This document shows, in pieces, positions 39,000 to 47,723 of a stretch of 64,000 bases of DNA. Under the pieces are notes generated by a model. The model ran no database searches. It was not told where the DNA came from and saw nothing but the letters and a program-made list of their open reading frames with translations. The stretch lies in assembly GCF_024700885.2 (NCBI RefSeq), contig NZ_CP117016.1. One strand, written 5' to 3'. This stretch comes from Escherichia coli. Its GTDB lineage: Bacteria; Pseudomonadota; Gammaproteobacteria; Enterobacterales; Enterobacteriaceae. The position numbers and the translations under genes are program-made. How positions within the stretch are numbered: the first letter of the stretch is position 1; the number at the start of each line of letters is the position of its first letter.

Positions 39000-39782
39000 T
39001 TAACCACCATAAACATCAAAATCGAAGTACTTTTTCGCTAATTTCTCGTAAGTACCGTCAGCGCGCATTTCGGCAAAGGCTTTGTTCAGTGCCTCGCGCA
39101 GTTCGTTATCTTCTTTACGCAGGCCCATGCCGGTCCCTACGCCAAACAGTTTTTCATCTTTAACAGACGGGCCACCGAATTTGTAATCTTTACCGACTGG
39201 CTGCTTGAGGAAACCTTCGCTGGCAGCGACCTCATCCTGGAACGCGGCATCAATACGTCCGGCAGTCAGGTCAGAATAAATGTTGTCCTGCCCCTGATAC
39301 GAGACGATTTCAATGCCTTTTGGTGCCCAGTGTTCATTACCGAACGTCTCCTGGGTGGTGCCCTGCAATACGCCTACCCGCTTGCCTTTCAGCGACTCGA
39401 CTGTCGGCTGAATGTCGGAATTTTTCGCCACCACCAGACGAGAATCGGCAGCGTACAGTTTGTCGGTGAAGGCTATTTCTTGCTGACGTTTTTCCGTAAT
39501 GGAAAGCGATGACATGATGGCGTCAATCTTCTTCGCTTTTAAGGACGGGATTAACGCATCCAGTGGGTTTTCGACAAACGTACATTGCGTATTGATGCGT
39601 TTGCACAACTCCTTTGCCAGATCGATATCGAAGCCAACCAGTTCACCTTGTGAATTTTTTGATTCAAATGGCGCATAGGTCGGATCGGTACCGATGCGGA
39701 TGTTTTGCGGAATCGCAGCAAACGCCGCAGTTGCGCTGGAGAAGGCCAGAACCAGAGAGAGCGATAGCACCAGTTTTTTCAT
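39000..39782 (-). CDS. hisJ: Histidine-binding periplasmic protein
   Basis: 260-aa ORF with signal peptide; matches HisJ. Confidence 0.96.
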
Positions 39783-40002
39783 AATGTCCTCAACTGACAG
39801 TCTTTTTATAGGGAATATTTACAGGTTTGTTACACTTATCGTGCCATAAAATTGACCATCAAGGCAAAATATCCCGCCCCGTTAGACGTATTATTTTTCA
39901 TTAAAAATGCTTAAGTATGCATTTCAATGCACCACGATAGTGCAACAAACCTGGCGTGCACCATGATGATCATTCCATCAGGTACAGCTTCCCTGCGACG
40001 TA

Positions 40003-40785
40003 TCAGTCACCGTAGACATTAAAGTCAAAATACTTTTTCGCCATCTTGTCGTAGGTGCCGTCCTGACGCAGCTCGCCAAGCGCCTTATTGAAGGCAGCCG
40101 TCAGTTCCGCATCATCTTTACGTAGCCCTACACCGGTGCCGTCACCGAAGTATTTTTTGTCTTTCACTGATGAGCCAGCAAAGGCGAAATCTTTACCAGC
40201 AGGTTGCTTGAGGAATCCTTCGCTGGCAGCAACTTCATCTTGTAACGCAGCATCCAGACGTCCTGCAGCCAGATCGGAATAGACCAAATCCTGGTTGGCA
40301 TAGGCCACCACATCCACGCCTTTGCTACGCCAGGTCTCGTTAGCGTAAGCTTCCTGGGTTGATCCCTGCAGCACACCCACATGTTTACCTTTCAGTGAAT
40401 CCAGCGTTGGCTGAATCGGCGAACCTTTGGCGGCAATCAAACGAGAATCTGCGGCGTACAACTTGTCGGAGAAAGCAATCTCCTGCTGACGTTTATCGGT
40501 AATGGAGAGCGACGAAATAATGGCGTCGATTTTTTTCGCTTTCAGTGAGGGGATCAGCGCGTCAAAGTCACTGGCAACCCAGGTACATTTCACCTGCATC
40601 CGTTTGCACATCTCGTTACCGAGATCGATATCAAAGCCAACAAAGTCACCTTTGGCATCTTTCGATGAGAACGGCGCATAGGTGGTATCGGTTCCGATAC
40701 GTACCGTCTCCGGTAGCGCCGCATAGCTGGAAGCCGCTGCAGAGAGACCGACTAACAAAGACAGAGCGAGAATCGACTTCTTCAT
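40003..40785 (-). CDS. argT: Lysine/arginine/ornithine-binding periplasmic protein
   Basis: 260-aa ORF with signal peptide; paralog of hisJ; matches ArgT. Confidence 0.96.
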
Positions 40786-40853
40786 ACATAACCCTCAAGT
40801 GAAAATGGCTTTTTTATGTTGTGTATTGTGTTGTGTGTTTGCAGGCTCTTTCA

Positions 40854-40869
40854 TGCAGGTCTTATGCCA
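40854..40869 (-). promoter_or_regulatory. Sigma54 (-24/-12) promoter for argT
   Basis: Minus-strand sequence TGGCATAAGACCTGCA versus consensus TGGCAC-N5-TTGCA; about 70 bp upstream of the argT ATG. Confidence 0.55.
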
Positions 40870-41050
40870 TCTTTACGACAACAGTAACATTCAACGTTAA
40901 ATATGTTAATAAGACGTTGCATTATTGTCCTAAAGTTGAAGATAGCAGGTATGGCGGTTGAATCGCAGCGTTTCGATTCATCGAAAGGAACAAAATGTCG
41001 AGGATTTGATCGCGGTTGCAAAATTGCCCTGAAACAGGGCAACAATGAGG

Positions 41051-41620
41051 TTATGCGCCCTGCCAGCGGGCAAAGAGATCTTCAGGAAGCGTTATGGCGA
41101 ATTGATCGAGTACACGGTTAACCGTCTGATTTATCACATCATCAAGGGATTGCGGGCGATGATAAAACGCCGGAACGGGAGGCATAATCACCGCACCGAT
41201 TTCTGCCGCCTGGGTCATTAAACGCAGATGGCCTAAGTGCAATGGTGTTTCACGCACGCAGAGCACCAGCGGGCGACGCTCTTTCAGCACAACATCTGCC
41301 GCACGGGTCAGTAAGCCATCAGTATAGCTATGGACAATGCCGGACAGGGTTTTGATTGAACAGGGTAAAATCACCATCCCCAGTGTCTGGAAAGAACCGG
41401 AAGAAATGCTGGCAGCAATATCGCGCGCATCGTGCGTCACATCGGCTAATGCCTGCACTTCGCGCAGGGAAAAATCCGTTTCGAGGGATAAGGTCTGGCG
41501 CGCGGCCTGGCTCATCACCAGATGCGTTTCAACATCTGCGACATCGCGCAGAACCTGTAATAAGCGCACGCCATAAATCGCGCCGCTGGCACCGCTGATG
41601 CCTACAATGAGTCGTTTCAT
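41051..41620 (-). CDS. ubiX: Flavin prenyltransferase UbiX
   Basis: 189-aa ORF; matches UbiX. Confidence 0.95.
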   Translation of the reverse strand: MKRLIVGISGASGAIYGVRLLQVLRDVADVETHLVMSQAARQTLSLETDFSLREVQALADVTHDARDIAASISSGSFQTLGMVILPCSIKTLSGIVHSYTDGLLTRAADVVLKERRPLVLCVRETPLHLGHLRLMTQAAEIGAVIMPPVPAFYHRPQSLDDVINQTVNRVLDQFAITLPEDLFARWQGA

Positions 41621-47063: not shown

Positions 47064-47723
47064 TTATTTTGCGGCGCGTGCCGCAGCGCGTTTGTGGCGA
47101 ATAAATTCGAAAACACCTGGCAATATTGAAACAAAAATAATGCCAACAATCATCAGTTTAAGGTTGCTCTGAATGAAGGGGAGCGTTCCGAAGAAATAAC
47201 CCGCGTAGGTAAAAATCAGTACCCATAGCAACGCGCCGATGACGTTAAAAGCGGCGAAATGACGATACGACATGTGGCCCATTCCCGCAACGAACGGCGC
47301 GAACGTTCTGACGATCGGCACAAAACGGGCGAGAATAATCGTTTTGCCGCCATGTTTCTCATAAAACTGATGAGTCTTATCAAGATAACTGCGACGAAAG
47401 ATTTTCGAATCCGGATTACTGAACAGTTTGTCACCAAATAACCGTCCAATGGTGTAGTTCACCGCGTCACCCACAATCGCGGCGATCAGCATCAGCACCA
47501 CCATCATATGGACGTTGAGATCGTTGGTTTCCAGTGATGCCAACGCACCGGCAACAAACAGCAATGAATCACCCGGTAAAAACGGCGTTACCACCAGACC
47601 GGTTTCACAGAACAAAATTAAGAACAAAATGGCATAAACCCAGACGCCATACTCCGCGACCAGTTCTGCCAGATGCACGTCAATGTGCAGGATAAAATCG
47701 ATGAGGAAATAAATCAGGTCCAT
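47064..47723 (-). CDS. dedA: DedA-family inner-membrane protein
   Basis: 219-aa membrane ORF. Confidence 0.94.

Follow-up and report, generated by a model that had tools for sequence, protein, structure and literature searches.

The analysed window, i.e., the whole stretch of 64,000 nucleotides (64 kb), derives from the E. coli chromosome: a query of 501 bp taken across the site studied here matches 5,425 of 5,426 complete E. coli genomes, in which it is annotated with ubiX and argT. The open reading frames around the site were named PurF, UbiX, ArgT, HisJ, HisQ, HisM, and HisP based on NCBIfam and all of them are encoded on the minus strand. The argT reading frame (40003..40785) was assigned as ArgT equivalog (NCBIfam, 583 bits). 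The product of argT is the lysine/arginine/ornithine-binding protein and the gene heads the argT-hisJQMP cluster. Positions 40786-41050 constitute exactly the ubiX-argT intergenic spacer of 265 bp. The window is collinear with K-12 without indels over 1.6 kb, and the spacer shows 13 differences between the window strain and K-12, none of which is located inside the sigma-54 motif described below. A palindrome, TTTCGAT-GA-ATCGAAA, is present at 40971-40988 (minus strand) in the least conserved portion of the spacer; as six differences between the window strain and K-12 fall into 40979-40988, the stretch varies already among E. coli strains. A search of 39700-41200 against Rfam at a permissive threshold gave no match, so that the conserved spacer does not belong to a curated RNA family. 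The features discussed in the following are compiled in Table 1.

Table 1. Regulatory features of the ubiX-argT-hisJ region, with positions given in window coordinates.
Feature	Position	Strand	Basis
sigma-54 -24/-12 element ATGGCATAAGACCTGCA (argTp)	40854..40870	-	sequence, PWM, ChIP match, conservation
Predicted sigma-54 start, 58-nt leader	40843	-	19 bp downstream of motif centre, Bonocora convention
Putative sigma-70 promoter: -35 TTAACA (40909-40904), 17-bp spacer, extended -10 TGtTACTGT (40889-40881)	40881..40909	-	hexamers inferred by eye
C/A-rich 5' leader UGCAAACACACAACACAAUACACAACA, GcvB sRNA R1 seed target	40817..40843	-	published target, duplex, conservation
Shine-Dalgarno GAGGG (40796-40792) and argT ATG (40785-40783)	40783..40796	-	sequence, ORF list, conserved alignment columns
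Hairpin GUUGCCCUG-UUU-CAGGGCAAU, then UUUG	41023..41043	-	RNA fold, 9-bp stem
Best NtrC dyad in the window, TGCACTATCGTGGTGCA (13/14)	39928..39944	-	consensus scan; argT-hisJ spacer
Second NtrC-like dyad, ATGATCATCATGGTGCA (10/14), 29 bp from the first	39957..39973	-	consensus scan; same ChIP-seq peak
Decayed sigma-54-like hisJ motif ATGGCACGATAAGTGTA, 48 nt before hisJ ATG	39831..39847	-	PWM, 12.8 bits

A -24/-12 promoter upstream of argT had been proposed from a 16-mer by an earlier, sequence-only reading of the window. This 16-mer, TGGCATAAGACCTGCA (40869->40854, within ...aaagATGGCATAAGACCTGCAtgaaa... on the minus strand), is correct to the base. The element reads TGGCAT-AAGAC-CTGCA and carries GG at 40868/40867 and GC at 40856/40855, i.e., the two doublets are ten bases apart as demanded by this promoter class. 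It is located in intergenic DNA shortly upstream of argT and in sense orientation to the gene, as both are encoded on the minus strand. The 3' end of the motif is 68 nt away from the argT ATG, in fair agreement with the distance of about 70 bp given before. The predicted sigma-54 start reproduces the published "distance 58" for argT (Bonocora et al., PMC4591121).

Over 64 kb, the motif match by itself does not reach significance. The pattern TGGCAY-N5-TTGCW with at most one mismatch has nine matches in the window versus 6.6 expected, and the pattern TGGC-N8-TGCA has three matches versus 4.2 expected. A sigma-54 position weight matrix (PWM) was derived from the intergenic-sense ChIP-seq sites of Bonocora et al. 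(PMC4591121), of which 41 were used after exclusion of argT. With this matrix argTp scores 14.95 bits and ranks second among ~128,000 window positions, where ~1.1 equally good matches are expected by chance per 64 kb; the score exceeds those of 13 of the 41 real sites and lies under their median (14.95 versus 16.2 bits). For the sense strand of the 265-bp spacer only, simple arithmetic from the window-wide null gives an expectation of ~0.002 for the same score. As the pattern counts and the PWM null are at chance level, the match alone was not relied on. The sole higher PWM match in the window, TTGGCATTATTTTTGTT at 47130-47146 (minus strand, 15.8 bits), is located inside dedA upstream of accD and was rejected as a strain-specific chance match. 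It is missing from K-12, which has TCGGGATTATTGTGGTT at the same position, and from the sigma-54 ChIP-seq tables. That the only higher scorer is missing from K-12 indicates that the PWM score alone means little here.

The element was compared between 80 argT loci, which represent about 25 genera of enterobacteria. In all 80 loci the best PWM match within the 300 nt upstream of the gene is the orthologous element, located 50-89 nt before the ATG. The core TGGCA-N7-TGC is invariant in 80/80 loci, and the alignment of 81 sequences shows 100% conservation over its eight columns. Variation is seen in the first base, in the spacer and in the base preceding TGC and gives rise to 22 different 17-mers. 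The variation is thereby confined to positions that sigma-54 tolerates, and the 15 columns just upstream of the element are mostly 0-60% conserved. The invariance in all loci, while the flanks drift, argues for the motif being more than a chance match.

Three further near-invariant blocks were observed in the spacer on the minus strand (41019-40991, 40970-40936, and 40924-40896; e.g., CGATCAAATCCTCGACATTT, CTGCTATCTTC, and TGCAACGTCTTATTAACATATTTAACG). Their conservation extends over about 25 genera and exceeds that of the end of ubiX, and the putative sigma-70 -35 falls into the block 40924-40896. For IHF (consensus WATCAANNNNTTR), the best match is GATCAAATCCTCG (41010-40998), which was judged by eye to agree in 7/9 positions and was rejected as too weak. 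A comparison by eye of the conserved blocks with the consensus sequences of ArcA, FNR, Lrp, and ArgR gave no convincing match. In addition, a 19-nt direct repeat is found on the plus strand (GTTGCATTATTGTCCTAAA at 40916-40934 and GTTGCAAAATTGCCCTGAA at 41015-41033), the copies of which are 79% identical and 99 bp apart. Both copies are placed inside conserved blocks and could represent a repeated protein-binding site or a chance similarity.

Published data on binding and expression are available for the same element. In E. coli K-12, the identical 17-mer on the same strand is the sigma-54 ChIP-seq site OS22 (argT), with a FAT (fold-above-threshold) of 12 and a distance of 58 nt, so that the promoter of the window is without difference to that of K-12 (PMC4591121). 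In that study 13 other sites were validated by qPCR against an rpoN deletion, and at the time of its appearance the E. coli argT sigma-54 promoter had the EcoCyc status "predicted" only (PMC4591121). In vitro, gSELEX gave a peak of the RpoN holoenzyme at argT (61% and 55%; PMC8743547); in the portion of the Shimada supplement that was searched, argT occurs in the RpoN rows only. In Salmonella Typhimurium, the identical 18-mer TGGCATAAGACCTGCATG is a sigma-54 ChIP-chip site at argT (STM2355). There, argT is one of four operons for which sigma-54 regulation was established by experiment, NtrC is listed as the activator, and the expression ratio of wild type to rpoN deletion was 3.5-fold with a constitutive activator (PMC3844500). 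In nitrogen-starved E. coli, argT, which belongs to the NtrC regulon, is upregulated, with recruitment of RNA polymerase (RNAP) and with an NtrC ChIP-seq signal at the gene. The proposal of a sigma-54 promoter of argT under the control of NtrC is hence supported by OS22 and by the Salmonella ChIP-chip site with its NtrC listing. With a probability of roughly nine in ten, the site is argTp, the already known sigma-54-dependent and nitrogen-controlled promoter of argT, which was correctly spotted from the sequence and is not new. That the motif is instead a functionless chance match would fit with the pattern counts and the PWM score, both of which are within the expectation for 64 kb. This is refuted by the sigma-54 binding seen in vivo in two species, by the in vitro selection with the holoenzyme and by the conservation of the element, the core of which is invariant and at a fixed distance from the gene in 80/80 loci, and the probability of a chance match is negligible.

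According to published data, the argTp element overlaps with a second promoter. It was reported that the sigma-54 motif extends from +6 to +22 relative to an active sigma-70 start (Table S3) and that the competition can be reproduced in vitro (PMC4551910); this position places the sigma-70 +1 at about 40875. The sigma-70 hexamers listed in Table 1 are an assignment inferred from the sequence, which fits the published start position. A simple sigma-70 scan of 39700-41150 returned no site, the putative hexamers scoring below threshold. Between genera the -35 block hardly varies, whereas conservation of the -10 is lacking. In nitrogen-replete cells, argT expression in the presence of rpoN was 23% of that in its absence, a ~four-fold reduction (Schumacher 2015, PMC4551910). 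The parked sigma-54 holoenzyme is a poised promoter and also a repressor. The same arrangement, a sigma-54 site within the footprint of sigma-70 RNAP that lowers transcription, was described for the Schumacher classes I/II (argT, chaC, mdfA, patA) and for glmY/glmZ in Salmonella. To classes I/II there is no difference, argT itself being a tested member. In the literature searched, a sigma-54 start of E. coli argT determined by experiment was not encountered; the sole mapped argT start reported there is that of sigma-70, ~5 nt before the motif. As sigma-54 represses the overlapping sigma-70 promoter, a 5' end mapped near 40875 would not speak against the sigma-54 promoter. The sequence-only reading had regarded a start inconsistent with the -12 element as decisive against its proposal; for a start at ~40875 this does not hold. 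It was moreover reported that argTp-gfp constructs are strongly active in rich medium, and this activity could originate from the overlapping sigma-70 promoter.

The leader of the predicted sigma-54 transcript is a target of the small RNA GcvB. Together with nucleotides 63-92 (R1) of K-12 GcvB, it was predicted to form a 26-bp duplex with -36.8 kcal/mol, which none of 500 shuffled sequences reached, the pairing being restricted to R1. The duplex begins with nucleotide 1 of the predicted sigma-54 transcript and the leader is conserved across genera. This duplex agrees with the documented GcvB regulation of argT, which is classified as a verified or conserved GcvB R1 target (PMC9299463).

NtrC sites were searched by counting matches to the published consensus TGCACCAnnnTGGTGCA (14 positions) with a window-wide null. 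It had been remarked from the sequence that no clear NtrC dyad is visible upstream of argTp, and the scan bears this out, the best site in 40786-41050 reaching 8/14. The best dyad of the window is located downstream of argT: it is the sole 13/14 match in 64 kb, is the same in K-12 and follows the predicted argTp start at a distance of 907 bp. Dyads of at least 11/14 are present in the argT-hisJ spacer in 73 of the 80 loci. For comparison with ChIP-seq data, which are given in U00096.2 coordinates, an offset (U00096.2 minus window) of 2,385,028 was applied, obtained from the argT gene-start and motif-centre coordinates of Bonocora et al. The strong NtrC ChIP-seq peak "hisJQMP" (23.7-fold, 2424941-2425021; PMC4066584) thereby maps to window 39913-39993, over both downstream dyads. 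The "argT" peak, which is the weakest in its table (5.4-fold; PMC4066584), maps to window 40833-40913, on the promoter itself; it was added by eye, as the peak caller had missed it (PMC4066584).

The comparison of the 80 loci showed NtrC-like dyads of at least 10/14 at -221 of the predicted argTp start in 45 loci, at -190 in 14 loci and at either position in 51 loci, at a background rate for such dyads of 2.3e-4 per position. These fixed dyads (alignment columns 74-105, e.g., loci L033, L025, and L066) sit outside Escherichia, Salmonella, and Citrobacter; examples are found in Klebsiella pneumoniae (12/14 and 11/14), in Pseudocitrobacter (13/14), and in Enterobacter sp. 10-1 (13/14). Neither the six Escherichia loci nor the window have a dyad of at least 10/14 at -221 or -190, and in the alignment a segment of ~30 bp bearing the -221 dyad is missing in Escherichia. 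In Salmonella and in most Citrobacter only degenerate remnants of the two dyads are seen. In Escherichia, the -190 position is taken by a G+C hairpin, listed for the window in Table 1, which is aligned with dyads such as TGCGCCACGATGGTGCA elsewhere and itself matches the NtrC consensus in just 8/14 positions. The hairpin is, judged from its fold, a probable weak terminator of ubiX; a terminator scan of 39700-41150 missed it because of its short T run.

Next to the downstream dyads, a sigma-54-like motif precedes hisJ. In E. coli, the -12 part of this motif is decayed and the strong dyads are kept at -116 and -145 of the predicted start. In Citrobacter, Franconibacter, Pseudocitrobacter, and others, the orthologous motif is found 47-50 nt before the ATG with scores of up to 18.5 bits (ATGGCACGATAACTGCA), and dyads are located at about -114/-136/-166. 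This suggests that an ancestral sigma-54 promoter of hisJ has decayed in E. coli. The E. coli motif was absent from those parts of the sigma-54 ChIP-seq tables that were searched, and in the literature searched the hisJ promoter is described as sigma-70-dependent and repressed by ArgR. As the dyads at -116/-145 have the classical spacing, they are most simply assigned to hisJ; they may serve argTp too.

These observations can be combined into a scheme for the control of argT. Sigma-54 RNA polymerase occupies TGGCAT-N6-TGCA in vivo as a closed complex, as published, and under nitrogen-replete conditions the parked holoenzyme lowers the output of the overlapping sigma-70 promoter, for which published evidence exists as well. 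Phosphorylated NtrC may then remodel the closed complex so that transcription would start near 40843, and GcvB would pair with the 58-nt C/A-rich leader and thereby repress translation. As candidate routes by which NtrC might act on argTp, weak local binding, action from solution with NtrC at high levels in starved cells, and looping from ~900 bp downstream were considered.

An alternative view of the scheme would be that in E. coli the site acts mainly by "parking" of sigma-54, which represses the sigma-70 promoter, and that it became unproductive since Escherichia lost the upstream NtrC dyads. In favour of this are the location of the motif, +6 to +22 relative to the sigma-70 start, the reduction to 23% and the in vitro competition (PMC4551910), the distribution of the -221/-190 dyads (51/80 loci, 0/6 Escherichia loci and none in the window), the weakest and hand-added NtrC peak at argT and the "predicted" status in EcoCyc. 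However, argT is among the NtrC-regulon units that are upregulated in nitrogen-starved E. coli and to which RNAP is recruited, and Salmonella is likewise without the -221/-190 dyads, yet its argT expression is sigma-54-dependent (PMC3844500). Repression by parking and activation by NtrC are compatible and the best explanation covers both, so that an exclusively or mainly repressive role appears improbable. For a productive argTp, one possibility is that NtrC fires the promoter without a strong site, either by weak non-consensus binding in the conserved blocks or from solution, which would make argTp a low-affinity and late-responding Ntr promoter; we consider this plausible, at somewhat below even odds. 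At high concentration, NtrC can activate sigma-54 promoters that lack NtrC sites. The NtrC ChIP signal at the promoter is weak but visible (PMC4066584), and several near-invariant blocks are present upstream of the promoter; on the other hand, no block is above 8/14, the best IHF-like match reaches 7/9 by eye, and the blocks may bind other factors.

NtrC bound to the two downstream dyads might also loop over ~880-910 bp and activate argTp from downstream, the cluster then having one enhancer; this is possible, but we regard it as rather doubtful. Speaking for it, the dyads are the best in 64 kb (13/14 and 10/14), they are located under the 23.7-fold NtrC peak and are conserved family-wide, and neither E. 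coli nor Salmonella has anything similar upstream of argTp. Weak NtrC signal on the promoter (40833-40913) is, moreover, what cross-linking through a loop might be expected to give. Reitzer and Magasanik reportedly found in 1986 that NtrC sites work from kilobases away and also downstream of glnAp2. However, the geometry at -116/-145 of the hisJ motif is that of a classical enhancer, with hisJ as the simplest target. Transcription through argT would cross the dyads as well. With the argTp dyads lost and the hisJ promoter decayed while its dyads were kept, the cluster would combine a good promoter without enhancer and a good enhancer without promoter. From this, a more specific and unlikely scenario can be drawn, according to which Escherichia, and less completely Salmonella and Citrobacter, lost the -221/-190 dyads and the activation of argTp has passed to the enhancer ~900 bp downstream, which lies within the unit transcribed from argTp itself. 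If true, this would represent a natural use of a downstream, long-range enhancer in bacteria that arose via enhancer loss and rewiring. The loss of the dyads in Escherichia and the mismatch of enhancer and promoter between argT and hisJ were not found stated in the literature searched; older primary papers may cover these modest comparative observations.

In analogy to glnAp2, argTp possesses the -24/-12 architecture with a closed complex awaiting NtrC and responds to the signal of nitrogen limitation. For glnAp2, two strong NtrC dyads are located at about -108/-140. Upstream of E. coli argTp, in contrast, no dyad exceeds 8/14, and the NtrC ChIP peak is 71-fold for glnAp2 versus 5.4-fold for E. 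coli argTp (PMC4066584). Another close counterpart is the argT promoter of Salmonella Typhimurium, which besides the same 18-mer, the binding of sigma-54 and NtrC as activator also shares the lack of a dyad of at least 10/14 at -221/-190. In the two Salmonella loci a strong dyad is found just after argT (12/14 and 14/14). Salmonella keeps a degenerate remnant of the -221 segment, whereas Escherichia has deleted the segment.

The promoter is textbook material, and its rediscovery shows only that -24/-12 elements can be spotted by eye. That most genera have dyads at fixed positions, that Escherichia lost these, and that strong dyads were kept beside a decayed hisJ motif is of modest interest for the evolution of sigma-54 regulons. 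In metabolic engineering, argTp was used as a strong nitrogen-responsive promoter (PMC7045595), and its users should heed the overlap with the sigma-70 promoter and the GcvB target in the leader. As a separate observation in the window, the gSELEX paper contains a weak peak of the RpoN holoenzyme (31-32%) upstream of cvpA-purF-ubiX with the poor motif TCGGTGACGTTTTTCT, located at about window 44044 in the dedD-cvpA region (K-12 U00096.2 2429072).
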